A DNA stretch of 61,061 nucleotides from Thermoplasmatota archaeon (GTDB taxonomy: Archaea; Thermoplasmatota; Poseidoniia; Poseidoniales; Thalassarchaeaceae). The stretch covers positions 1 through 61,061 of the forward strand of contig JAYZLP010000002.1 in the NCBI GenBank assembly GCA_036154155.1, in the 5' to 3' direction. The notes below the pieces were generated by a model. The model saw only the letters and a program-made list of their open reading frames with translations. It had not been told where the DNA came from and did no database searches. Within the stretch, counting starts at the first letter, position 1; each line of letters begins with the position of its first letter. Made by a program: the position numbers and the translations under genes. Positions 18,250-54,315 of this stretch are shown in pieces.

Positions 18250-18828
18250 TTACCTTAGTTCAGAGAAGGCTTCGTCTAGGGCTTCCAAGTCCGATGGCAG
18301 ATCGACGTTAAGGTGGAGGAAGGAATCTGAAACTTCCATCCTTGAAGGCTCAATCAGCCCCTTCAATGGTACAGAAGGAACGGACTCTAGAACTCTAATC
18401 GCATCCTCTCCCGAGAGAAGCAAGGGGTGCCCACCCCTCCCGTCCATCGATGGGCATGCAGTAATTTTCGAGGAAAGAAGGGAGGACAATGTAGAGTCGG
18501 AGAAACCAGGCCTATCCACAGGAACAATCAGAAATCTCCTCTCTGGGTCCAGTCCTATCCTTTTGATCCCCATCTGGACTGTACCAGTCCTTCCCAAATC
18601 CGGTTCCGGATTGCAAACCACATCGCAGTCAACTGACTCTAGGACATCTTCGAAGAGACTTTCATTAGTCACAACTACTGGATTTAGTCCATGCTTCCTC
18701 AGTCTACTAACAACCCAGCCTACTAGGTTATACTCTCCTAAATCGACTAAGGCCTTGGGTTGTCCAAGCCTCTTACTGGAACCGGCTGCCAATACCACGC
18801 ATCCGACTTCTGTCTCCATGAAGCTCAC
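18250..18828 (-). CDS. MobA/MocA-like nucleotidyltransferase (probable molybdenum cofactor cytidylyltransferase)
   Basis: VVLAAGSSKRLGQPKALVDL is the NTP_transf_3 N-terminal motif. The gene lies in the Mo-hydroxylase/XdhC neighbourhood. Start is GTG 18828 (GTGA overlap) or ATG 18819. Confidence 0.7.
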   Translation of the reverse strand: MSFMETEVGCVVLAAGSSKRLGQPKALVDLGEYNLVGWVVSRLRKHGLNPVVVTNESLFEDVLESVDCDVVCNPEPDLGRTGTVQMGIKRIGLDPERRFLIVPVDRPGFSDSTLSSLLSSKITACPSMDGRGGHPLLLSGEDAIRVLESVPSVPLKGLIEPSRMEVSDSFLHLNVDLPSDLEALDEAFSELR

Positions 18829-19970
18829 GAGCCTCGCAGCATCTCTCTGCCGATAATCAGCCTCTGAATCTGGCTCGACCCTTCGAAAATCTGAACCACC
18901 TTTGCCCCGCGCATCCTCCTCGCTACTGGGTATTCCTCAGAGTAACCATATCCTCCGAATACCTGCACAGCATCAGTTGTTACTTCCATAGCTATGTCAG
19001 CTGCAAATCTTTTGGCATGCGCTGCCTCAAGTGTATTCCTTTCTCCGGAGTCGGACTTGATAGCAGCTTTCCAAGTAAGCATCCTAGCGGCCTCCACCTT
19101 GGTCGCCATATCCGCTAGCATGAAGGAAATGGCCTGATGTTTGACGATAGGCTTCCCAAACGTGCTTCTATCGGTCGCGTACTGAATAGCCTCCTCCAAA
19201 GCGCCCCTCGCATTTCCGACGGCATGAGCAGAAATAGTGGGCCTTGAAAGGTCAAACGCCTTCATTGCGTTCATCCATCCTCCATTCTCTTCCCCCCCAA
19301 CTAAATTTTCAGATGGGACTCTGACATCAGTGAAAGTAACTGAACGAGTGTCAGAGCACCTCTGCCCCATGTTGTCCTCCTTCTTTCCTAGCTCCACTCC
19401 TTCTGAGCTTGCATCAACAATGAAACCGCTCATTCCTTGATATCCAGCTGTCTTGTCGGTGTAAGCCAGAACGAAAAACCAGTCTGCATAACCAGCCCCA
19501 GTTATCCACATCTTGCTACCATTCAGGATGTAGTCATCCCCATCCTTTACTGCCTCCGTCTGAATTGATTGTACATCACTACCTGCCCCAGGCTCGGTTA
19601 CGCAATAAGATGCGATGCACCCCTCTGATACCTTGGTCAGATAACGCTCCTTCTGATCCTCAGTCCCGCCAGTTAGTATCGGGTATGAAGCTAGCATGGT
19701 ACTTCCACACGCAGTAGCGAAACCAGGGTCGCCAGCACCGAATTCCTCACAGACGAGGACTTCTTCGAAAGAACCCATGCCGCCCCCTCCGTACTTTTCA
19801 GGGATCTTCAAGGTCAGTAAGCCGTTATCACTGGCCTTTCGAATTGCTTCCCTGGGAAACTCACTATCCCTGTCCCATCTACCTGCATGAGGCTTTATTT
19901 CTTCATTGGCGAAGTCTCTAGCTAGCTCCTGAAGCATTAGCTGCTCCTCGCTCAATGCAAAGTCGACCAT
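18825..19970 (-). CDS. Acyl-CoA dehydrogenase
   Basis: Full-length ACAD: CVTEPGAGSD, KMWITGAG, QVFGGYGYSEEYPVARRMRGAKVVQIFEGSSQIQR. Confidence 0.92.
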   Translation of the reverse strand: MVDFALSEEQLMLQELARDFANEEIKPHAGRWDRDSEFPREAIRKASDNGLLTLKIPEKYGGGGMGSFEEVLVCEEFGAGDPGFATACGSTMLASYPILTGGTEDQKERYLTKVSEGCIASYCVTEPGAGSDVQSIQTEAVKDGDDYILNGSKMWITGAGYADWFFVLAYTDKTAGYQGMSGFIVDASSEGVELGKKEDNMGQRCSDTRSVTFTDVRVPSENLVGGEENGGWMNAMKAFDLSRPTISAHAVGNARGALEEAIQYATDRSTFGKPIVKHQAISFMLADMATKVEAARMLTWKAAIKSDSGERNTLEAAHAKRFAADIAMEVTTDAVQVFGGYGYSEEYPVARRMRGAKVVQIFEGSSQIQRLIIGREMLRGS

Positions 19971-29304: not shown

Positions 29305-32300
29305 ATGGTGGGGCGCTCATCTGCGATAGCATCTGCCTTGGTGCTGCTGTTCATTCTCCCGCTAGCTTCGTCCTCTATTTCACCAGTCGATCAGGGCAAG
29401 GGGGGATTGGATGCTGATGGCAAATGGGTCCTCAGCGTAGAGTCCGACTTGCATGCCGAATGGTGGCTCCACTGGAGCAGAGACAAGGACTCAGACTCAA
29501 TCGATGACCGGCTTGAGTGGCTATTGCAGCAACCAGAACAAGTTCAGCAGGACTGGTGGAGGAGGGCGCCTGAGGGGAGTGCTAGGATATTCATTGACTA
29601 CAACCACCACCCCACCGACGCCGACGTCTCAGCACTAGAGGATCTAGGGGCCCAGGTCACGTTTCGTCCGAAATACCTTGACACTGTAACCGCAACCGCC
29701 CCGTTTAGCTCAATACTTTCTGAGAATGGAATACTTTCCCTGCCGGGAGTTGTCATGATTGAGGATCTAGGCCTTGCGGAGCCGAACATGCACGAGGCGG
29801 TTCCAAACATGGGTGTTGATCAGGTATGGAACGACTTCGGATTTGACGGCACAGGATCAGTCATCGCTATCCTCGATACTGGAGTGAGGGGCGATCACGA
29901 GGGCCTCAACGATATGGACGACGAGCCATTCACTATGGGCTGCGATCAACCAGACCCCGATCCAACCAATCCGAACCCAATTCCAATTGATTGCGATCCG
30001 AAGATTATTGCCTTCTTCGATGCTGTCTTCACGGACTCAGAACAGGACCCCTCGACATCTTACGACTCGGGGACTCACGGGAGCCACGTGGCTGGTATAG
30101 CCGCTGGGACCGGAGGCGGCCAAACAGACCCAACCACGGGACTCAAGTACGTGGGAGCCGCCCCTGGCGCATTCCTGATCAACCTGCTAGCATGCTGTGA
30201 CGGAGACATCGAGGACGTCATCCAAGGGGCCCAGTGGGCTATCGATAACAAGGACAAATATGGTATCGACATAGTCACATCATCTCTTGGTGAGCAGCAG
30301 TTAGAGATACACTTCGACAATGATGGAAGCTCTGCTTGGAGCAGGCAGATGGACTCGGTGGTAGAGGCGGGAATTATTACCACCCTGTCAGCAGGTAATG
30401 AGTTCGGGGGAGCAACCTTCGCCGGATGCAACACGATAGACAGTCCCGGAGACGCAAATCTGCCAGTAACAGTGGCGAGCTTGGACAAGGACCTCGGCCT
30501 AGCGATTTACAGCAGTCGCGGGTACACATCAGATGGCAGGGTCAAGCCAGATGTCGCGACCATCGGATCTAGCATTATGGCCCCAGACGCAGCGACCAGC
30601 GATGGCTACACCAGCAAGTCAGGCACCAGCATGGCCACTCCCCTGATGGCAGGGATTGCCGCTCTGATGGTAGAGGCCAATCCAGACATCACCCCAACCG
30701 AGTTCAAGGACATCATCTCTGCACACTCCATTGAGAGGGACCTCCAGTTGCTGGACGATCCCGGATTCAATGACTGCAGTATCCTGGAGACTCGCCCGGA
30801 CAACGAGTTCGGGTTTGGTCAGGCAGACCCGCTAGCGTTCGTCGAGGCAGCAGGCAGCATCGACAGATCTCTGAATGTTAGCATGGACGTAGAAACTCTG
30901 CAGCAGATAGGAAACGAGTCTTACATCTCAGGAACCGCATCGGGAGTAGCACCGGGAATGGGCCTGGTGCAGGTTAGAGTCGGAGGCGGTGAGTGGAAGG
31001 GGGCAGCAGACATGTCAGGGGACTGGGGCCAGTGGAGGGTCAAGCTAGATCCGCATGATAAGTCGGGCAACTCCACAATTTATGCACGATTAGTCGCTTC
31101 CGAGAACAGCATCTCACCCATTGATTCCAGAAGGGTCATTCTCGTCGACGGAGATGTTTCGAGTAGTTCCTCGGGGGACCTCACAAAATTGAGCAGCACA
31201 ATATTCTGGATTCCATTCATAGCTTCAGTTGCAATTATCGGCATCGTTTCGGTAAGGGAGCGTTGGATTACGAAGATCAGAGGCGAAGATGAACTCGACG
31301 TATCAGAAAATATGGGCATCTACACCATTACAAGTAAAATCGGCTCAGCAATCGACCCTCGTCTGATCCCAGGCAGGTGGAACTCAGCTAGAGAGTCTTG
31401 GAACGATGGCGAGTCGCTGGTTGAGAACCAATTCAGAAGGTACGTCTCTCTCTCCATACTCTACACTGCCCAAGGCCTCCCTGCAGGATTTACCAGTGTG
31501 ACTTTTGTTGCTTTCTTGGTAGCTAACGGGGCGTCTCCAGAGCAGATAGCTGCCCTATTCGCAACCATAGCGCTTCCTTGGACTTTCAAGTTCATCTGGG
31601 GGCCAGTGGTAGATGCAGTCCAGTTCCCTTCTTACGGACTAAGGAGACCTTGGATCCTATTTGCTCAGACTGGTATGATTATTACTTTGGGGGCATTGCT
31701 TTTCGTACCCGATCTGAATGCCTCAATAGAGCTCGTGACTCTAATGTTGTTCATACATAACCTGTTCTCGTCACTACAAGACGTGAGCGTGGACGCCTTG
31801 GCAGTCGACGTTCTTCAGCCTGACGAGGTCGCGAAGGCGAACGGCTTCATGTTCGCAGCAAAGAGAGGTGGGATAATTATCGGAGGAGCAGTTGTTGGGA
31901 TGTTGGTCTTGGACTTCGGAATTAAGGCCGCCATCATGGTCCAACTCCCTCTCCTGGCCCTGATAATGTGCCTCCACCTCTTCCTGAGGGAGAGGCCCGG
32001 CGATCGTTTGTTCCCCTGGCAGAGATTCGCCGATGGACAAGATGCTGATGGCGATTCTGATACGGCCAAGGAGAATTTGTGGGAAGCAGAAGAGGCCCTA
32101 CCTTGGGAAGATGACCACGAAGATGATTTCAGAGTTGCCAGCTGGGTCTCTGGAAATATATATGGGAATCAGATACAGGGTATCGCCGTACTTCTTTGGG
32201 CAAGCATAGTAGTGATGCTTATCGGAGGCGCATTGGGGATAATTTACCTCGTTTCGGGCGTGGCCTCATTCGATACCATTGCCTCGCCACTAAAGAAAGT

Positions 32301-33135
32301 AGGATGGTACTCCTTCCTGCTATCATTGTCAGGAATAGCGATTGGAAAGTTCCTTTTGCCTGCCGTTTCTGACTTCCGCATATCGAACCCCCTGAGCGTC
32401 TCGGCTAGGACCGGACTCGCAGTTCCTGCCTACAACATTGTCAAGGGGTTCTCTCTCAGGTCTTCTTTCCTGCTCATATTCCTCTGCCTACTGTCCGAGA
32501 TGTACGTCTTCGTTGATCCTATAGTGGTTGATATTTTCATCAACGAGGCAGGATGGACGCAGACGAAGTACAATGGGATCATGGGAGGGATAGTGATTCT
32601 CTTCCTAATGGGGGGGCAGATTCTAGGAGGATTCCTGGGAGACAGGTTCGGAGTCAGGGAAGTTGCAATGGTGGGCTTCACCCTCCTCGCACTCGGTAAT
32701 GCTGGCCTCGCAATGCTTGAGCCTTATTGGACCAATACCGGAATAATGACCGTCTATCTTTGCCTAAGGGCAATAATCAGCGGCCTTGCATGGATTTGTA
32801 TTATCTCGGTATCAATGAGGCTCACCTACAGCAAAGCAGGAGGAACCCAGTTCACTGCATATATGTCGATGTTCAACCTCTCCGCAGTTATTGCATACCA
32901 ATTCACTGGCAGGATGGTCGAGATTTTTGACTACATCTCAGCACTTTACTTGGGAGCGGCACTCACCCTATTTACCGTAGTGATTCTCGTCTTCATCGAT
33001 CCAGACGAATGCGACCGGGTCCTTGAGGGACGTTTGGGTGGTGACGATGAGCCGGACGGCGATCTCGGAGAGACTCCCGATGGTTGGTGGGAGGCAGAGA
33101 ATGAGAGTGTGGGAAGGGATGGCGTCGTTTCTTGA
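29305..33135 (+). CDS. Fusion protein: secreted subtilisin-like S8 protease + single TM + AmpG-like MFS permease
   Basis: Signal peptide. Catalytic residues D191 (AILDTGV), H258 (GTHGSHVAG), N365 (SAGNE) and S442 (SGTSMATPLMAG). TM at residues 633-650. The MFS domain starts at LYTAQGLPAGF...WGPVVD and has about 12-14 helices. The reading frame is uninterrupted for 1276 aa. Confidence 0.85.
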   Translation: MVGRSSAIASALVLLFILPLASSSISPVDQGKGGLDADGKWVLSVESDLHAEWWLHWSRDKDSDSIDDRLEWLLQQPEQVQQDWWRRAPEGSARIFIDYNHHPTDADVSALEDLGAQVTFRPKYLDTVTATAPFSSILSENGILSLPGVVMIEDLGLAEPNMHEAVPNMGVDQVWNDFGFDGTGSVIAILDTGVRGDHEGLNDMDDEPFTMGCDQPDPDPTNPNPIPIDCDPKIIAFFDAVFTDSEQDPSTSYDSGTHGSHVAGIAAGTGGGQTDPTTGLKYVGAAPGAFLINLLACCDGDIEDVIQGAQWAIDNKDKYGIDIVTSSLGEQQLEIHFDNDGSSAWSRQMDSVVEAGIITTLSAGNEFGGATFAGCNTIDSPGDANLPVTVASLDKDLGLAIYSSRGYTSDGRVKPDVATIGSSIMAPDAATSDGYTSKSGTSMATPLMAGIAALMVEANPDITPTEFKDIISAHSIERDLQLLDDPGFNDCSILETRPDNEFGFGQADPLAFVEAAGSIDRSLNVSMDVETLQQIGNESYISGTASGVAPGMGLVQVRVGGGEWKGAADMSGDWGQWRVKLDPHDKSGNSTIYARLVASENSISPIDSRRVILVDGDVSSSSSGDLTKLSSTIFWIPFIASVAIIGIVSVRERWITKIRGEDELDVSENMGIYTITSKIGSAIDPRLIPGRWNSARESWNDGESLVENQFRRYVSLSILYTAQGLPAGFTSVTFVAFLVANGASPEQIAALFATIALPWTFKFIWGPVVDAVQFPSYGLRRPWILFAQTGMIITLGALLFVPDLNASIELVTLMLFIHNLFSSLQDVSVDALAVDVLQPDEVAKANGFMFAAKRGGIIIGGAVVGMLVLDFGIKAAIMVQLPLLALIMCLHLFLRERPGDRLFPWQRFADGQDADGDSDTAKENLWEAEEALPWEDDHEDDFRVASWVSGNIYGNQIQGIAVLLWASIVVMLIGGALGIIYLVSGVASFDTIASPLKKVGWYSFLLSLSGIAIGKFLLPAVSDFRISNPLSVSARTGLAVPAYNIVKGFSLRSSFLLIFLCLLSEMYVFVDPIVVDIFINEAGWTQTKYNGIMGGIVILFLMGGQILGGFLGDRFGVREVAMVGFTLLALGNAGLAMLEPYWTNTGIMTVYLCLRAIISGLAWICIISVSMRLTYSKAGGTQFTAYMSMFNLSAVIAYQFTGRMVEIFDYISALYLGAALTLFTVVILVFIDPDECDRVLEGRLGGDDEPDGDLGETPDGWWEAENESVGRDGVVS

Positions 33136-33974: not shown

Positions 33975-34943
33975 TCACAGATTCCATTGGAAAACCAATG
34001 CCCCAGCAACCTTGAGGTGGACGAACGATGATTGGCCACGGACCGTTACTGTAAGTGAGTACTCTCCAGAGTTGGAAGGTATGGTGCCTATCGCCCCCTT
34101 TTCAGTCGCCCCAGATCCCCATGCGCGAGTTAGGGGGGAAGCTCCGGCATGATCCTTCATTGTTAGGGAACCAGACGAGGCCCCATTGGATGAAATTTCC
34201 ACATCAAGATACCAAACCAAGGTATCCCAATCTCCTTCCGATGGGTGCCCATCATCGAAAAATGAGTCATATATCTCCTGGTCATTCTCCTCATAAAGTC
34301 GATCAATTAGGTCCCTAGCCCTATAGAAAAACACATCACCTTGATAGCTCGATCTGGCGACATTCAAATCCATTCGCAATTGGTTCCTCCCCTCCGAGTC
34401 CTCCCAAACTAGCCTTTCCAGGAAACCATCACTCCCGCTGAATGTGTATTGCAATTCATGGCCTTCTGAAGATTCCGCACTCACTCTGGCATTTCCATTG
34501 TTAATGGAATTAGTAGTAGCACTCCATTCTTGACCGAATAGGGTGAATGACCATTCATCGCCGACGACCCAGGGGAATGAGAATACTTGCTGAGGAACTC
34601 CATTTTCGTATACAGACAGGCCATCAATTGTCATTCTTCCAAGAAATGGATTATGGTTGATTACCGCATGTCTCTGAGCCTCTCTCTCAGAAGAGATTCC
34701 GACTTGGTAATCCCCAGATTCGTTATCAATTTCTGCAACAACTAGCCTTGCGCTGTCTTCTCCGAATTGCGGCGTGATAAATGTGTACAGCCAATTATTT
34801 CCAACTTCCCATTCTGGGAGCACCATGTCGTCATCATCAGACTCTTCCGATTGTCCAGAGTCGCCTGTCTCGATGCAACCGGAGAGAATGCACATCGCCA
34901 TCAATGAGGCCATTCCAATTGCAGACCCGCCCCTCATGGCCAT
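33975..34943 (-). CDS. Secreted acidic lipoprotein, unknown function
   Basis: The signal peptide ends in a lipobox-like ILSGC. The mature part is acidic and beta-rich with no recognisable catalytic motif. Confidence 0.6.
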   Translation of the reverse strand: MAMRGGSAIGMASLMAMCILSGCIETGDSGQSEESDDDDMVLPEWEVGNNWLYTFITPQFGEDSARLVVAEIDNESGDYQVGISSEREAQRHAVINHNPFLGRMTIDGLSVYENGVPQQVFSFPWVVGDEWSFTLFGQEWSATTNSINNGNARVSAESSEGHELQYTFSGSDGFLERLVWEDSEGRNQLRMDLNVARSSYQGDVFFYRARDLIDRLYEENDQEIYDSFFDDGHPSEGDWDTLVWYLDVEISSNGASSGSLTMKDHAGASPLTRAWGSGATEKGAIGTIPSNSGEYSLTVTVRGQSSFVHLKVAGALVFQWNL

Positions 34944-41456: not shown

Positions 41457-44400
41457 CTAATCCTCAAAGAGTGCTTCGATGTCTTCGTCGTCCAGAGCCT
41501 CTTCTACGGACACTGCCACATCCTCCGGGACAGCTTCGTCAACCTCTTCCTCGACCGTCTCGCCAGTAAGCTCCTCGAAAGCCTCTGCTACCCCCTCTCC
41601 AGAGAACCTGTCAACTTCGGATTCGACGCTTTCATAGGTCCCCTCCGACTCTCCATCATCTTCTTGAGTAGGCGAATCGGGGTTTTCCTTCTCCTTGCTG
41701 AAGGGGTCATATTGAGGATTGTCAAATGCATCGTCCATTGATATTCTCCTCCTACCTAGTGCCGGATCAGGCCTAGCTCTGCGGTCAGGCCCCCCCCTCT
41801 TCTGCAGAACCACAGCAGCGCCAATTACAACAATCAGGACGAAGGCCAGAATTATTCCATAGTCGGAGACAAACTCCCCCATGCTGAAGGGAGCCTCAAG
41901 AATCACTACAGTAAGTGTCACCGAAGCTCCGTCGCCCTCATCCAGAGCAGTCATTTTTATTGTTCTCGAACCATAACCGTTGAACGTCCACTCAATCCAC
42001 TGGCCTTGGATGTCTATGTCGTTCTCCGGATCGCCGTCACCATCGCTGTCTACAGCCGTGTCCATGTCCCAGTTGTACAGCATATTTGCCATATCGTGCT
42101 CTGAGTCCGTTGTCCCATTAGCGGTGAAGAATAACACATCCCCCTCTTGTACGTCCAAAAACGCACTGGAATCAGCCTTAGGAACCGGCTTGACGTTCCT
42201 AATATCTAGCGGAATTTCCACAGATGCCGTTGCGCCATCGTCATCAGTAACGTGGAAAATTATCATCTCTGGCGCAGTGGTGGCATCGGGCCAAGATCGA
42301 GTGAGGTGGCCCGACTCCAAGTCACAGTCATCCGTCGAAGTCCCCTCTCCATCACTGTTCGACAGTGGATCAAGGTCGAAGCACCTGGTTAGTGTGAGCA
42401 TGTCGCCACTTGTATCAGTCACCTGGATGAGGATGTCTACCAACGAGTCTTCTGCAGCGGGAAGTGGCGGAGAGATTGGTGAGATAGATGGCTCAATGTT
42501 CATCACTTCTATCGGAACAATAAGTGCCTCTGTACTTTCTCCGTCATCGTCGACAACCTGCAGTGTCGCGAGATGCATCCCGGAGGTGTCATAGATGTAC
42601 TCCATAGTACTCTTTCTTCCCGTTGTCTCCATAACGATGTCCGGATTATTCTCAGCATCAGGGGACCATATGTGCACTAGGGTATCCATGTCATTTTCAG
42701 AATCGTCAGCCCAACCCTCGAATCGGAGCGAATCCCCCTCATTCACAATGAAGACGCCCCTGCTGTCGGCTATCATTCGATTATCGCCCAGCCAAATCTC
42801 GGCTCTCGGGTTCGTAGGGGCAATGTTCCTGACCTCTATGGTCTTGGTCGAAGAAACGACGGCCCCGTCGTCATCCATCACTTCGACCTCAGCGGTGTAT
42901 TCGCCCTCTGATGTGGGCGTCACGGTACAGTAGAACCCAACTTGCCCCTCCTCACAAGGTTGCTTCCATAGTATGTCCACCGGTGCGGAGGGGTTCTGTG
43001 TGTCCAGGTCGCCAACGGAATCCTCGACATTGAACTCGATGGGGGAAAGCACTGGTGTCCACTCGTACTCAGAGTTGACTGTAACGTACGGCTCTCGATT
43101 AAGTATGGTCACTACCGACTCGCTCCAACTTTGGTCATTTTCATCATCTGTGATCACTAGCCTGATCGAGAAAACGCCGTCGTCGTCCCACGTATGCTCA
43201 TGGACACAGTCTTCCTCTGCAGATGAGGCATAACCCCCTTCCAGAGTCTCCACAATAAATTCGCATGAAAAATCCCCACCATCTGGGTCGTAAGAAGAAA
43301 GTCCGTTGAAGCTAACTTGGTCAAGAGTCAAAGATTGCGAAGGAGCGCTAAGGCTAGCCGTAGGGGCCCTACCGATGAACAACGAGAATGAACCGTGGTT
43401 GTTGCTCCTATTGCCGTCATTGTATACCTCCTCGTTGGGGTCGACGGTGAAAGATAGCGAGACATCGCCTATCGCCTGAGACTGAGGAACCATCCAGTCG
43501 ACCTCGACTCTTGACTGGCTGAGGCTGGAAAGTGGTGGCACAGAAACACTCTCAGAGGTCCCATCAGGTGCTTCTACCGACATCGTAGTAGCGGGAGAGC
43601 TCAGAATCCCCCTATTCTGAACAGGGATGCTGAATGTCAGCATGTCCCCCGGTATCGCGTTGAATCCTACTACGGAATCCAAGGTGGTAGTTTGATTGTC
43701 CCTAACCCTCTCTACCGTTACGCCCTCCGATCTGGCAATCAGGTCAACGGGGTAAGTGTCCGGGTCTATCGTTATTGTAGATGCGCCAATTATCTTCTGA
43801 TTTGGTATCCAAACAATCACTCCATGGCTCCCCGTGTCGGGACCGCCAATGGAATCATCGGACTCACTACCAGAGTTGAATGTAATTTCCGCCGAACCAC
43901 CTGAACCGGTCGTGAATGTCCTGACATCCTCTTCTATTCCATACCTGAACTCAATAGACTGGCCAGATACATCCTGATTGTTCTGAGTGACATTGGCGAA
44001 TACGGATTGATCCATGTCCAGGGGGGAAAGAGCGAATTCAAGATCAACCGAGATTTGCTTGCTCCTAGGTGCCGCTTGATACATGACCAATTCGTGATTA
44101 GCCAGGAAACCAACGCTTTGGGTGAACGAGGAGTAAACGTCCCCTCTCACAGATGGGCAAAACCACCTGTATCCAGTTGGATCGCCATTAGAATCATAAT
44201 TTGTGATGTTGTAAGATTGCTGACAGGATGCATAGCTGACACCAGGGGCGCCCCTGCTCACGACTTCCCAGCTAGACGACTCGTGTGAAGACTCATCAGC
44301 AGGAATGTCCACATAGTCGCTAGACCCGGTGTATTCTGTATCTTGATAGTAGTCCGTGGACCATTCGTCACCTACGTTCAGAGGGAAATCATACCCCTCT

Positions 44401-44948
44401 GTCGGTGGCGAGAATGTTTGCGAAATTACGAGATCCGCTACGTCTATGTTGATTGTCCACCAGAGGATTTGGTATTCGAAGTCTATGTCAATAGTAGCCT
44501 CTTGACTGATAGTGGCAAGGTCTGACGCCCTAATCAATTCTGTAGTATCTATTTCTACAACTAGGTCCCCCTCATTACCATCAAGCTCGATATCTTCAGC
44601 TTCGTAAGTTCCTACTGAATTCGCCTCATAGACTAGGGTGGATCTGTTGTCCACGTCTGCTAGGACATAGATGTCATCGATATTCTTGACCAGTGAACCC
44701 TCCAGAAAGTCAACAGTCGTACTAACACCAGAGGTCGCGATAAAGTCTCTTACGTCCAACTCTCCGTTGTACGTCCACCTGTCATTTATTCGCCATGTGG
44801 GTAGGTCGACGATTCCCGTATTCCTGGATGTCGAGTGGGTTTCCTGTTCACCCCCCAGGGCCTCTCTTTCTCCGTCAATCAGCAGTATACAGTACTGTGA
44901 AGATAGGAGAATCGCTAATCCAATTGCTATCGCCCGCGCGCTACGCAT
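41457..44948 (-). CDS. Large surface protein with multiple PKD-like repeats, a C-terminal TM and an acidic cytoplasmic tail
   Basis: Signal peptide from ATG 44948. Recurrent PKD-type motifs (SSYDPDGG, ITDDENDQS, VMDDDGAV, VVDDDGES, VTDDDGAT). TM helix YGIILAFVLIVVIGAAVVL, followed by a ~150-aa D/E-rich tail. Confidence 0.8.
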   Translation of the reverse strand: MRSARAIAIGLAILLSSQYCILLIDGEREALGGEQETHSTSRNTGIVDLPTWRINDRWTYNGELDVRDFIATSGVSTTVDFLEGSLVKNIDDIYVLADVDNRSTLVYEANSVGTYEAEDIELDGNEGDLVVEIDTTELIRASDLATISQEATIDIDFEYQILWWTINIDVADLVISQTFSPPTEGYDFPLNVGDEWSTDYYQDTEYTGSSDYVDIPADESSHESSSWEVVSRGAPGVSYASCQQSYNITNYDSNGDPTGYRWFCPSVRGDVYSSFTQSVGFLANHELVMYQAAPRSKQISVDLEFALSPLDMDQSVFANVTQNNQDVSGQSIEFRYGIEEDVRTFTTGSGGSAEITFNSGSESDDSIGGPDTGSHGVIVWIPNQKIIGASTITIDPDTYPVDLIARSEGVTVERVRDNQTTTLDSVVGFNAIPGDMLTFSIPVQNRGILSSPATTMSVEAPDGTSESVSVPPLSSLSQSRVEVDWMVPQSQAIGDVSLSFTVDPNEEVYNDGNRSNNHGSFSLFIGRAPTASLSAPSQSLTLDQVSFNGLSSYDPDGGDFSCEFIVETLEGGYASSAEEDCVHEHTWDDDGVFSIRLVITDDENDQSWSESVVTILNREPYVTVNSEYEWTPVLSPIEFNVEDSVGDLDTQNPSAPVDILWKQPCEEGQVGFYCTVTPTSEGEYTAEVEVMDDDGAVVSSTKTIEVRNIAPTNPRAEIWLGDNRMIADSRGVFIVNEGDSLRFEGWADDSENDMDTLVHIWSPDAENNPDIVMETTGRKSTMEYIYDTSGMHLATLQVVDDDGESTEALIVPIEVMNIEPSISPISPPLPAAEDSLVDILIQVTDTSGDMLTLTRCFDLDPLSNSDGEGTSTDDCDLESGHLTRSWPDATTAPEMIIFHVTDDDGATASVEIPLDIRNVKPVPKADSSAFLDVQEGDVLFFTANGTTDSEHDMANMLYNWDMDTAVDSDGDGDPENDIDIQGQWIEWTFNGYGSRTIKMTALDEGDGASVTLTVVILEAPFSMGEFVSDYGIILAFVLIVVIGAAVVLQKRGGPDRRARPDPALGRRRISMDDAFDNPQYDPFSKEKENPDSPTQEDDGESEGTYESVESEVDRFSGEGVAEAFEELTGETVEEEVDEAVPEDVAVSVEEALDDEDIEALFED

Positions 44949-44989
44949 ACCGGTCTCTGGGCGTAACGCCCAAATCAATGTGTCTAAGA

Positions 44990-51615: not shown

Positions 51616-54216
51616 CTACTCTTCCTCTATGCCCGAATCACCCATAACACGCCCTCTCAGGTTGTTGTTTATGGTGGCCACAGAGCCAATTATCACAGCC
51701 AAAGCGACAAATATCGCCACCCAATAAAACGGACCGTCCATCCAGGACTCCTCCTCGGTATCTTCCGCACCTTGATTATCTGAAGGCTCATCGGAGGAAA
51801 CCTCCACGAAAACGACGTCATGCCTGCATTCTAACCAGTCTTCATTCGAGGAGGGAACTAGGGCATCGGTGCAAATCCTTCCTGGGACCGTAAATGAGTC
51901 AGCCACCTCAAGGTTACAGAACTGTGTCATGAACCACGAGGAGATGCACTCCTCGGTGTCCTGCATCACCACTAGGATGGAGCCGCAGAGTATCATTTCT
52001 CCCTCCGCAGCATCTGGTATTCCACCTGAAACGCATTCTTCGATGTGAATCCCCTCAGGTATTGTTGTGGGATGCGGAATAGAGCCACCTCTCGGGCCAA
52101 ACGTAGGGAAAGTCGTTGGAAGGTCAGGAGGAGGTGTAGCCGGAACATTGTTGCCCCCGTTGCCATTTCCTGTGAGATTGGTCTCAATCGGTTCGGCACC
52201 ACCAACTGTGCCACCAACCCTGTGGCCGTTTTCGTCAAGCTCAATGTCGTAGTAATCTGACCATAGGTCGATTGACCGGTCTTTCTGGAATGTCAGAGAA
52301 CGATTCAGAACGTCGAAGTATCGATCATCACCGAGTGTGAATAGGTACTCAATTGGAACGCTCTTTCCTTGATTACAGTCCTGCAGATAAGCAAACATCT
52401 CTGCGAATGTCTGCTGGGCCTCAGGGACTCCATCATAGGTTATGTCGGTCGCCTTTCTGAAGCCATCGCCCTCGATAACCTCGACCTCGTTATCCATGGC
52501 TTGCATGATATCGACGTCCCCGAAAACTGGAAGTCCGCCCACCACAACCAGCCTGATATCAGGATCCACTGCATTTATCGCGTTGCGATATGGATCTGCT
52601 TCGAAGGTATCCAGCACCACCAAATCAGCAGCGAGCCCCTCCTGGATCCTCCCCGTGTTTCCTGACCAACCTATGGCGTCTACGACATTCGTCGTTATGG
52701 TCTGTAACAATTCGTAGTCTGAGAAAATGTCTCCAAGAACGTTTTCATCCCACCAGTCAGCGGTCTTGAGCTCATGCAAAGAGCTCTTAGAGCCCGAAGG
52801 CGACCAATCTGGTCCGATCATTATGTTGACACCTTCAGCCTTCGCCGTGGCAATGTCCGTGGTTTCACCATACAACAGAAGATTGGATGTCGGCGACCAA
52901 GCGAGGCTACCCCCAACGTCGCCCAAAGCTGAGAACTCTGGTTGGGTCAGGCCAGTCCCATGAATTACCACTATTTCTCCCACAAGCAGATCGTTCTGTA
53001 CAAGTACGTCAAACTCGGCTCTGCTGGACTCATCTATCCCCTCGGCAAGGTGGATGAACCAGGCATCAAGGTTCCCCGATGAATTCCCGTCCTTGATGTG
53101 ATTCCCCTCATAGTCCGATTCTAATTCAGTCACCTTGGTCCAGATATTATCCCCTCCAAAGTTGTAGAGCTCAATGTTCCTAGCGAGCATCGTCTCGAAA
53201 GTGTCAGTATTGGAGGTCGAACTCCCCTGCAATGCGGTATTGCCACCAGCGACCGCTCTCAATTCTGCAAATCTCATCGCCGAAGAGTCGTAGAGTGAGC
53301 ATCCAATGTCCTTAGCATCGCTGTATCCAGAGTATGACTGCCATTGGTATCTATTGTCCCACCCATCGGTCCCATGATCCCACAATGGTATGAGGTTGTA
53401 CTTTGCATGATTGTGAGGGTCCACAAATCCAGGGTAAATCGTACCACTAGTGGGTACGTGCACTACTCCCTCAGCCGCAGCGGGAGCATCTTCCGAGGAA
53501 CTCCATACGGCCTCTATCATCCCATCTCTGACCAATACCCTACCATCGTCAATGATATCATCCTGAGCTACCATTGTGACAACTCTGCCTTCGAGTACAT
53601 ACTGTCCATTGTGTACGTGGTCCTGAGGGGGGTAACAATTGCCCATTAGGTGGTTAACCCCGACCCACTCCTCACTGTTTGAGCCCCCTGGGGTGGGGCT
53701 CCCTTCCGAAAGCTTCGACCAAGTTCCACTTGAGTCATATCCGTAGGGTATCCCGTAATCAGAATCCTCGGCTTCATAGCTGACAGAATCAACAACTGAA
53801 CCAGACCCGTCAAGGATCGAGACTGTGTCACCGGCGAAGTAGTCGAACTCTATGTTAGTCTGTGCCCTGTAGAATACTAGGTATGCCCCGGAATCAATTA
53901 CCGTGCCCCAAGCAATGCTGCACATGGGGGAACCGCCGTCCGCTATGTCGTCAATCCACCAGCCTCCGATGTCCACCGCCTCCTCAGATGGGTTGTGCAA
54001 CTCGACGAACTGGTTAGAGTATCGACTAATCTCGCCGTCCCCATTCCAGTCTATCCCCCCATACGCCTCACTATTTGGTGAGACATAGATTTCGTTGATG
54101 TAAATCGAATCTGAGGAGGACGAGCCGTCCGATGTGTTCTGGCCCGATGCCAGCATCGCCGGGCTTAAGCTGGTTATTACAATCAGGAGGGCGGCAGTCA
54201 TCACAGAGGCTCGCAT
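51616..54216 (-). CDS. Secreted, C-terminally anchored lamin-tail-domain (LTD) + amidohydrolase-superfamily protein
   Basis: Signal peptide from ATG 54216. LTD-like segment IYINEIYVSPN...NQFVELHNPSEEAVDIGGWWIDD. Amidohydrolase motifs PGFVDPHNHAKYN, HLAEG, VVIHGTG and GPDWSPSG. A C-terminal TM (WVAIFVALAVIIGSVATI). Confidence 0.75.
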   Translation of the reverse strand: MRASVMTAALLIVITSLSPAMLASGQNTSDGSSSSDSIYINEIYVSPNSEAYGGIDWNGDGEISRYSNQFVELHNPSEEAVDIGGWWIDDIADGGSPMCSIAWGTVIDSGAYLVFYRAQTNIEFDYFAGDTVSILDGSGSVVDSVSYEAEDSDYGIPYGYDSSGTWSKLSEGSPTPGGSNSEEWVGVNHLMGNCYPPQDHVHNGQYVLEGRVVTMVAQDDIIDDGRVLVRDGMIEAVWSSSEDAPAAAEGVVHVPTSGTIYPGFVDPHNHAKYNLIPLWDHGTDGWDNRYQWQSYSGYSDAKDIGCSLYDSSAMRFAELRAVAGGNTALQGSSTSNTDTFETMLARNIELYNFGGDNIWTKVTELESDYEGNHIKDGNSSGNLDAWFIHLAEGIDESSRAEFDVLVQNDLLVGEIVVIHGTGLTQPEFSALGDVGGSLAWSPTSNLLLYGETTDIATAKAEGVNIMIGPDWSPSGSKSSLHELKTADWWDENVLGDIFSDYELLQTITTNVVDAIGWSGNTGRIQEGLAADLVVLDTFEADPYRNAINAVDPDIRLVVVGGLPVFGDVDIMQAMDNEVEVIEGDGFRKATDITYDGVPEAQQTFAEMFAYLQDCNQGKSVPIEYLFTLGDDRYFDVLNRSLTFQKDRSIDLWSDYYDIELDENGHRVGGTVGGAEPIETNLTGNGNGGNNVPATPPPDLPTTFPTFGPRGGSIPHPTTIPEGIHIEECVSGGIPDAAEGEMILCGSILVVMQDTEECISSWFMTQFCNLEVADSFTVPGRICTDALVPSSNEDWLECRHDVVFVEVSSDEPSDNQGAEDTEEESWMDGPFYWVAIFVALAVIIGSVATINNNLRGRVMGDSGIEEE

Positions 54217-54315
54217 GACCAACGAAGCAGCGCTCCCAGTTTTGAACCCCACCGCCCTGCATCGCAGGGCGCATCACGTGCGAAGTGCGAAATAGCACTC
54301 TGCTAACCCATACTC

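Follow-up and report, generated by a model that had tools for sequence, protein, structure and literature searches.

A subtilase ectodomain and an AmpG-like permease in one polypeptide of marine Poseidoniia archaea

A protease and a transporter share one chain in the C39 bacteriocin exporters such as PCAT1, ATP-binding cassette (ABC) proteins in which the protease is cytoplasmic and a leader is removed during export; these belong to families unrelated to those described below and work in the opposite direction to the import that we propose. Among AmpG-family permeases, AmpG itself is a proton symporter (PMC11568325), and AmpG1 of Acinetobacter baumannii has a periplasmic domain that docks the lytic transglycosylase Slt, the maker of the AmpG1 substrate (PMC13507758). 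Here we describe a gene at positions 29305-33135 of a 61,061-nucleotide (nt) stretch of DNA from a Thalassarchaeaceae archaeon (Poseidoniales, Poseidoniia), which encodes a subtilase (peptidase family S8) ectodomain followed by an AmpG-like permease of the major facilitator superfamily (MFS) in a single polypeptide. The whole stretch, positions 1-61,061 of contig JAYZLP010000002.1 in assembly GCA_036154155.1, is referred to as the window.

The permease half of the window protein had AmpG (PAT family, TIGR00901; PDB 9c3f, 8zgz, and 9j9z) as its best match in both family and fold, and shared with it motif A, residues of the fourth transmembrane (TM) helix, and a helix number exceeding twelve. 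The two proteins were, however, only ~16% identical; the extra helices of AmpG are C-terminal (TM13 and TM14), whereas those of the window protein lie in the central loop, and the window protein adds an N-terminal anchor helix and a protease ectodomain. In addition, its host is an archaeon without murein. The AmpG1-Slt pair is alike in concept, since an AmpG-family permease with an extracytoplasmic domain brings a product-making enzyme alongside the transporter. The AmpG1 coupling is non-covalent, glycan-cleaving, and directed at the cell's own wall, whereas the window protein has a peptidase in the same chain and a putative external substrate. The protease half resembled Tk-SP of Thermococcus kodakarensis (PDB 3afg) and archaeal S8A enzymes, with which the propeptide and catalytic domain aligned over ~390 residues, and a C-terminal beta domain was present in both. 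In contrast, Tk-SP is soluble and secreted, its beta domain did not align with that of the window protein, and the window chain continues into an anchor and a permease.

A literature search of full texts and Marine Group II (MGII) genomics papers found discussions of extracellular S8 and M28 peptidases and no description of a permease fusion, in keeping with the statement of a first-pass annotation of this DNA that no characterised protease-MFS fusion was known. Both domain families and precedents for enzyme-permease coupling were already known; the novelty lies in the covalent joining of an ectopeptidase to an MFS permease, in how old and widespread this architecture is in Poseidoniia, and in the cassette-like exchange of ectodomains.

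The fused gene and its two halves

The gene was an ATG-initiated single open reading frame (ORF) of 1276 codons with zero internal stops, and orthologues aligned with its product from residue 1. A search of 5.8 billion proteins gave 888 matches, of which the best 120 were 1255-1317 amino acids (aa) long and 66-98% identical over 97-100% of the query, all with S8 and MFS Pfam domains. More than 100 full-length fused clusters were found at 66-98% identity. When 1.84 billion 50%-identity representatives were searched exhaustively by HMMER with residues 77-1276, only ~2 full-length fused clusters were obtained; the second (P0242) was 48% identical, was collinear over residues 53-905, and included a protein annotated as from a Marine Group III (MGIII) euryarchaeote. 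The hosts of the fused gene were labelled Poseidoniales, Thalassarchaeaceae, Thalassarchaeum, or Marine Group IIb (MGIIb), organism labels being given here as deposited. In two genome scans, which yielded 99 fetched loci from ~80 MGIIb assemblies, S8 and permease shared one frame with no stop between them, and no adjacent split S8/permease pair was found among the 99 loci. That two genes were merged through an error of sequencing or assembly (a missed stop or a frameshift near nt 31100-31450, for example) is vanishingly improbable, because these 99 loci were independently assembled, the fused protein occurred in NCBI, JGI, ENA, Tara, and Logan data, and homology to both parent modules was unbroken across the junction, with the MGIII homologue collinear as well. 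The claim of the first-pass annotation that this is a genuine fusion and not two merged genes was thus upheld; in related genomes most orthologs were fused and a minority were split and non-adjacent, rather than being always two separate genes. Judging from these homologues, the fused architecture is old and is common to MGIIb and MGIII. Among the fused loci L096-L161, the distance from the end of the S8/beta region to the start of the MFS domain was bimodal, with 55-57 aa in 18 loci and 90-127 aa in the rest, so that there seem to be two linker-length classes among the fused genes.

In the N-terminal half, the Pfam model Peptidase_S8 (PF00082) matched residues 182-505 over its full length (model 1-288/288, E = 5e-42, 144.7 bits against a cut-off of 21.8). 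The catalytic residues in the order Asp-His-Ser and the oxyanion Asn were located in the motifs AILDTGV (D191), HGSHVAG (H258), SAGNE (N365), and SGTSMATP (S442), and all four were invariant in 226 homologous sequences (122 fused and 104 stand-alone). An ectodomain profile aligned with chain residues 30-415 of pro-Tk-SP (PDB 3afg) at E = 7e-95. Because this alignment covers the propeptide, residues ~88-165 represent a subtilisin propeptide, a feature absent from the first-pass annotation, and the enzyme would be made as a zymogen, although the Pfam Inhibitor_I9 model gave no match to the window protein. The beta domain showed 82% mean identity among fused forms and was common to stand-alone anchored subtilases up to the sequence RRVILVDG. 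The ectodomain belongs to Peptidase S8, is S8A-like, and is predicted to be a catalytically complete endopeptidase.

The membrane part was modeled with AlphaFold2 from residue 613 to 1276 using a 47-sequence alignment (mean predicted local distance difference test [pLDDT], 74.5; predicted template modeling score, 0.75). The model had 15 helices: an anchor helix at 632-651 (pLDDT 74-94), then, after the linker, six TM helices, an acidic loop, two inserted TM helices, and six further TM helices before the tail. From this number of helices and the RERWITKIR sequence that follows the anchor (positive-inside rule), we infer that the ectodomain is outside and both MFS termini are inside. The Pfam model MFS_1 (PF07690) matched with E = 1e-23 and 84 bits (cut-off, 33.4), and BT1 and Acatn also matched from residue ~716. 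The best NCBIfam model for the C-terminal half was TIGR00901, the AmpG family (model 4-415/417, E = 1e-36), with a score of 126.3 bits, below the curated cut-off of 350, and the AmpG equivalog models gave only 50-63 bits against cut-offs of 656-756. In a Foldseek search of the PDB, ranks 1-4 were all AmpG (E = 1e-11 to 8e-8), followed by other MFS carriers including SLC33A1 and POT peptide transporters.

When positions defined in the Escherichia coli AmpG cryo-EM paper (PMC11568325) were compared through a profile alignment, K62, W65, P67, D70, R80, R81, and W83 of AmpG were kept as K762, W765, P767, D770, R780, R781, and W783, and Q124, D125, D129, and D134 of TM4 as Q825, D826, D830, and D835. 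By contrast, AmpG Y59, Y152, K132, and R79 were replaced by W759, K853, A833, and Leu, respectively. The replacing residues W759, K853, and A833 were invariant across the subfamily, as were motif A (WGPVVD...GLRRPW) and the K762/D826/D830 cluster. The AmpG vestibule helices TM13 and TM14 had no counterpart at the C-terminus, where TM12 is followed only by a disordered acidic tail. Since the AmpG scaffold and its presumed proton machinery were kept and several AmpG-defining features were not, we describe the permease as AmpG-like and not as AmpG.

Most of what the first-pass annotation had read from the letters agreed with these analyses. The ORF scan and a crude hydropathy scan, which detected the signal peptide, a lone hydrophobic stretch at 626-652, and densely spaced helices beyond ~780, bore out an uninterrupted 1276-aa frame opening with a signal peptide. 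Profile searches of each half, which it had recommended, assigned the N-terminal half to Peptidase_S8 and the C-terminal half to MFS, and the S8 catalytic set was complete as quoted. The single TM helix that it placed at 633-650 coincided with the hydropathy segment and the modeled anchor, and its ~60-aa linker measured ~57 aa. Its MFS domain of 12-14 helices corresponded to 6 + 6 core helices with two inserted ones, and its topology, with the protease outside, one crossing helix, and the MFS N-terminus inside, held in the model and by the positive-inside residues. Its AmpG/PAT assignment was correct at the family level, though below the curated cut-off. The beta-rich spacer was present as described, with a length of ~108 aa and not ~120.

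Ratios of nonsynonymous to synonymous substitution rates (dN/dS) against four orthologues were ~0.01 in the S8 domain, 0.04-0.06 in the propeptide, 0.03-0.04 in the beta domain, and 0.008-0.045 in the two MFS halves (C-domain, 0.008-0.03). Values were 0.13-0.32 over the stalk, anchor, linker, and central insert (0.17-0.32 for spacer, anchor, and linker), and identity among fused forms was 42% in the Ser-rich spacer and 48% in the central acidic loop. By these estimates, both halves are under strong purifying selection. Against a 94%-identical orthologue (L002:4087-7914), the synonymous rate (dS) was 0.9-1.1 over the propeptide and S8 domain and only 0.27-0.58 from the beta domain onward, an unevenness suggestive of mosaicism through recombination, with the breakpoint close to the module junction.

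Exchange and separation of ectodomains

Permease relatives without S8, ~50% identical to the permease half and ~875-895 aa long, were found in the same archaeal family. In place of S8 they carried a Cys-containing, all-beta domain of ~230 aa with no Pfam match, here called X, and an AlphaFold model of the X ectodomain (pLDDT 50.6) was too poor for a fold search. Variants of the X-type form with 770-804 aa (L049 and P0151) lacked the central two-helix insert. The X forms occupied the same syntenic slot as the window gene, in the order ThiF, Pyr_redox, riboflavin genes, DHBP synthase, GHMP kinase, the gene itself, alpha/beta hydrolase, a 320-aa gene, H+-PPase, and GATase. This neighbourhood was considered as an operon-like clue to function and set aside, as it consisted of housekeeping genes that were syntenic across the order and gave no functional hint. 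Homology to stand-alone subtilases faded out by residue ~640, and that to the X forms started at 627; as judged from these limits, the module junction is the Ser-rich stalk (Table 1).

Phylogenetic trees were constructed by neighbour joining (NJ) on corrected p-distances, not by maximum likelihood, and the permease tree was rooted with bacterial relatives. In the permease trees the fused forms were monophyletic in 0/60 bootstraps, and the X forms made up two monophyletic groups (57/60 and 60/60) nested at separate places among the fused forms (60/60 and 58/60). Two changes sufficed if the fusion was ancestral and S8 later gave way to X on two occasions, and five were required in the reverse direction. 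The nesting of the X forms within the fused forms therefore pointed to an ancestral fusion in which S8 was replaced by X twice. The converse, that the fusion arose when a subtilase copy replaced domain X, had also been considered and was reversed by the rooted trees. The S8 tree was poorly resolved and is insufficient by itself to show which way the module moved.

Stand-alone anchored subtilases of Thalassarchaeaceae (P0402 and similar, ~670 aa) had the same propeptide, catalytic, and beta domains as the window protein and were 68-75% identical to it over residues 10 to ~640; unlike it, they ended in their own C-terminal TM helix and a short tail. Their genes lay ~12 kb from the permease locus, between acyl-CoA dehydrogenase and NTP-transferase genes and beside a 35%-identical paralogue (S8p2). 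None of the ten assemblies with a stand-alone S8 at that site had a known fused gene, ten assemblies with a fused gene had no stand-alone copy there, and none had both; these absences are provisional, given the incompleteness of metagenome-assembled genomes (MAGs) and the up to 80 loci inspected. The P0402 type occurred only in genomes whose permease gene carried X instead of S8. This mutual exclusion suggested that each genome has one S8 module, fused to the permease or else separately anchored a short distance away. Related genomes had one or two anchored S8 genes between the two flanking genes, with S8p2 only in 25 fetched loci and both S8p2 and the ~80% S8 in 10-11. At the corresponding, empty site of the window (Table 1), the genome has lost, or never had, both subtilases. 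Contig NZWI01000049.1 (L020/L129/L260), binned as 'Candidatus Neomarinimicrobiota bacterium NAT51', carried an archaeal fused gene and an S8p2 locus with MGII synteny, and is probably mis-binned.

A second peptidase family was found in the same position. In the M28 fusion (P0245, 869 aa; a 134-member cluster; Tara), Peptidase_M28 stood at the N-terminus of a permease-family member, and its metal-ligand motifs were recognisable by eye. Among the species representatives of Poseidoniales, ~25 had full-length M28 fusions, MAGs with the labels MGIIa and MGIIb-P being among them, and in L165 the gene had the same genomic neighbourhood as the window gene. The lists of S8-fused and M28-fused forms, compared by eye, had no assembly prefix in common. 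P0245 was like the window protein in its signal peptide, peptidase, spacer, anchor helix, acidic linker, and a permease from the sister clade, and unlike it in belonging to a metallo-exopeptidase family, in its 12-helix permease without the central insert, and in that the equivalent of R854 was not conserved. Another member, P0250, had a plastocyanin-like (cupredoxin) N-terminal domain with an intact type-1 copper motif (Cu form), and further members (N270 forms) had uncharacterised N-terminal domains of ~270 aa.

In the combined NJ tree, bacterial stand-alone permeases fell outside the archaeal clade, within which the MGIII S8 fusion branched first; an M28 clade, with Cu and N270-type variants nested in it, was sister to the MGIIb S8 clade, in which the X variants were nested. 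The S8/X part was monophyletic in 60/60 bootstraps. The X, M28, Cu, and MGIII forms all had a similar anchor helix, and a signature of signal peptide, ectodomain, anchor, acidic linker, and permease (W759/K762/D826/D830/A833) was shared by the window, X, M28, Cu, N270, and MGIII forms. We propose to group these as ectodomain-anchored AmpG-like permeases of Poseidoniia. From these comparisons, the anchor and permease appear as one module at a conserved locus, the ectodomain of which behaves as an interchangeable cassette.

More distant family members (P0376, 1367 aa; P0282, 840 aa; P0379, 1080 aa) had C-terminal extensions, comprising a GH63-like glycosidase with GH65C and F5/8 type C (galactose-binding) domains, a 3-keto-disaccharide hydrolase, and FG-GAP repeats. 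In Verrucomicrobiales (L051, L052, L055, L057, L058, and L063), the gene after that of the stand-alone permease relative encoded a sulfatase that had an SGSH C-terminal domain, and the next one a ~1100-aa ThuA-DUF7133-cytochrome c protein; since these six loci were closely related to each other, they count as few independent observations. In Planctomycetia (L068:5974-10828 and L069), genes for a beta-lactamase-family protein, a SASA-type acetylesterase, and a DeoC/LacD aldolase followed the gene of the stand-alone permease relative, overlapping or nearly abutting, and make up a candidate operon for catabolism from which the cargo of the subfamily might be learned. Beyond the sulfatase and Planctomycetia sets, the bacterial loci were heterogeneous, and overall their neighbourhoods gave weak hints only. 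The N-domain pocket and the proton residues were invariant across every group, bacterial relatives included.

Possible function of the fused protein

MGII, uncultured and among the most abundant archaea of surface seawater, are believed to feed on high-molecular-weight protein. Such a lifestyle raises the question of how a free-floating cell gets back what its external enzymes produce, to which a protease on a permease would be a direct physical answer. For the window protein, we consider it an evenly balanced proposition that the tethered protease is coupled to the import of its products, as the first-pass annotation had suggested. More tentatively, the architecture in Poseidoniia may form a modular one-chain 'cut-and-capture' machine, in which an S8 or M28 ectopeptidase hands its products to a built-in AmpG-like proton symporter. 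The Sec signal peptide would export the protease, the propeptide would be removed by self-activation, and the protease would stay attached to its own permease, a few nanometres over the opening that faces the outside. Fragments cut from dissolved or particulate protein, which could be short peptides or AmpG-sized glycopeptide-like conjugates, would then be imported by proton symport before they diffuse away. In favor of such coupling we counted that both halves are intact and conserved with the protease placed over the permease, that two unrelated peptidase families, S8 and M28, occupy the same position with M28 on a sister permease clade, and that other family members are fused to glycoside hydrolases. 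In the literature, MGII are viewed as organisms that break down protein outside the cell and have ectopeptidases of the S8 and M28 families (PMC6864105, PMC6336850, PMC9723583). The last of these papers places 'subtilase', not tied to the fused gene, among highly transcribed MGII genes, and its supplementary tables list transcribed MGII subtilases, among them stand-alone genes of an MGIIa MAG (PMC9723583).

If true, the cut-and-capture proposal would describe an archaeal, protein-directed counterpart of 'selfish' polymer uptake, in which the cell profits from extracellular proteolysis without diffusion loss. The fused S8, the fused M28, the swapped non-enzymatic domain, and the naturally split lineage together offer a natural experiment on tethering. 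The genes also carry a warning for annotation: their current labels are 'hypothetical protein', 'MFS transporter', or 'S8 peptidase', and MGII peptidase surveys count them with the permease overlooked. Some homologues already bear the JGI name 'subtilisin family serine protease/MFS family permease'.

Several observations weighed against the coupling of cleavage with uptake. The platform that bears the peptidases also bears the cupredoxin and the non-catalytic X domain, so the module can serve simply as an anchor. One lineage separated its S8 from the permease and kept both parts, which indicates that the covalent linkage is dispensable. The N-domain pocket is identical in bacterial relatives beside sulfatase, beta-lactamase-family, SASA esterase, and DeoC aldolase genes and in glycosidase-fused members, so the core site does not track the peptidase fusion and the cargo may not be a peptide. 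Moreover, with the AmpG sugar contacts Y59, Y152, and K132 replaced, the substrate of AmpG itself cannot be assumed. M28 enzymes usually free single amino acids and S8 enzymes oligopeptides, so that one shared product is not obvious. Given the Trp/Asp/Lys pocket, which relatives in carbohydrate contexts share, the cargo may be a glycopeptide-like, sugar-containing conjugate rather than a plain peptide.

The same observations would fit a module in which the permease cargo is unrelated to the ectodomain and the anchor and MFS domain are a scaffold for repeated grafts, giving co-expression and display and not channelling. We regard this as rather unlikely, though it is the alternative with most in its favor: besides the copper-ligand-intact cupredoxin and the beta domain X, it would account for two or more ectodomain swaps in the S8 clade and further swapping in the M28 clade, for the own anchor of S8 in the split genomes, and for pocket residues that stay constant whatever the ectodomain type, and in the peptidase-rich secretomes of MGII, grafting at random would frequently pick up a peptidase (PMC6864105). 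A neutral scaffold, however, fits poorly with the dominance of two unrelated peptidase families (the tree set had ~78 S8 and 26 M28 sequences, and 18 + 3 + 2 with other ectodomains) and with distant relatives fused to hydrolases that yield small transportable products. One C-terminal helix already anchors the stand-alone paralogues, so a 14-helix scaffold would be unneeded, and AmpG1-Slt is a precedent for enzyme-permease coupling in the family (PMC13507758).

It is improbable that the fusion serves biogenesis only, with the protease cleaving itself at the Ser-rich stalk to become a free exoenzyme and the permease working alone. Subtilases commonly autoprocess, a propeptide is present, and the stalk is flexible and weakly conserved; yet the stand-alone paralogues keep their own TM anchor, as expected of an S8 lineage built to stay on the cell, no conserved cleavage motif was evident in the stalk among the fused forms, and a released enzyme would gain a planktonic, free-living cell little. 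Slightly less probable still, and the least so among these functional alternatives, is export with maturation, in which the MFS domain exports a precursor (a peptide or another conjugate) that the outer protease trims, as in lantibiotic LanT/LanP or the C39-peptidase ABC exporters. Protease-transporter fusions are known among bacteriocin exporters, and some wider-family relatives move substrates out of the cytosol, with SLC33A1 among the weaker matches, but the closest characterised relatives (AmpG and RhtX/FptX) are importers, the neighbours are housekeeping genes (riboflavin synthesis, GHMP kinase, H+-PPase) with no precursor or modification genes present, and the locus is conserved over the whole class and not patchy like a secondary-metabolite cluster.

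Features of the window

The coordinates of the fused gene and of the empty subtilase site are given in Table 1.

Table 1. Positions of the fused gene, its parts, and the tandem subtilase site in the window
Feature	Position (nt)	Strand	Residues	Details
Whole fused gene	29305..33135	+	1276 aa + stop	98-99% identical to P0001 and to MAG UBA438 contig DAQP01000008.1 (the UBA438 comparison drawn from a species-representative genome collection)
Signal peptide	29305..29376	+	1-24	MVGRSSAIASALVLLFILPLASSS; hydropathy peak 1-29; putative cleavage site
Subtilisin-type propeptide	29566..29799	+	~88-165	Within N-terminal pro-region 25-170; identified by alignment to pro-Tk-SP
S8 subtilase catalytic domain	29815..30819	+	171-505	Pfam PF00082
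Catalytic codon, Asp	29875-29877		D191	
Catalytic codon, His	30076-30078		H258	
Catalytic codon, Asn	30397-30399		N365	
Catalytic codon, Ser	30628-30630		S442	
Beta-rich domain	30820..31143	+	506-613	No Pfam match; N-glycosylation sequons N524, N537, N589
Ser-rich juxtamembrane spacer	31144..31182	+	614-626	Module junction
Single anchor TM helix	31183..31257	+	~627-651	Followed by RERWITKIR (positive-inside)
Cytoplasmic linker	31258..31428	+	652-708 (~57 aa)	Acidic, partly helical
MFS N-domain, TM1-6	31429..31986	+	709-894	AmpG-type extended motif A and TM4 acidic residues
Acidic disordered central loop	31987..32130	+	895-942	pLDDT <50
Two extra TM helices inserted in central loop	32131..32394	+	~959-984 and 987-1016	
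MFS C-domain, TM7-12	32395..33009	+	~1031-1235	
Acidic disordered cytoplasmic tail	33010..33132	+	1236-1276	
Empty tandem subtilase site	18277..19970	-		Acyl-CoA dehydrogenase 18837-19970 directly adjoins NTP-transferase 18277-18798

Three other genes of the window, all on the reverse strand, were recorded. A 322-aa ORF at 33975-34943 had no Pfam or NCBIfam match; in loci of the S8, X, and M28 types it was conserved directly downstream of the permease gene. An ORF of 1172 aa at 41457-44978 contained CARDB and PKD domains, with ~430 N-terminal and ~450 C-terminal aa outside any Pfam match, and probably encodes a large surface protein. At 51616-54252, an 877-aa ORF joined a Lamin Tail Domain to an amidohydrolase domain and may encode another surface-exposed hydrolase.

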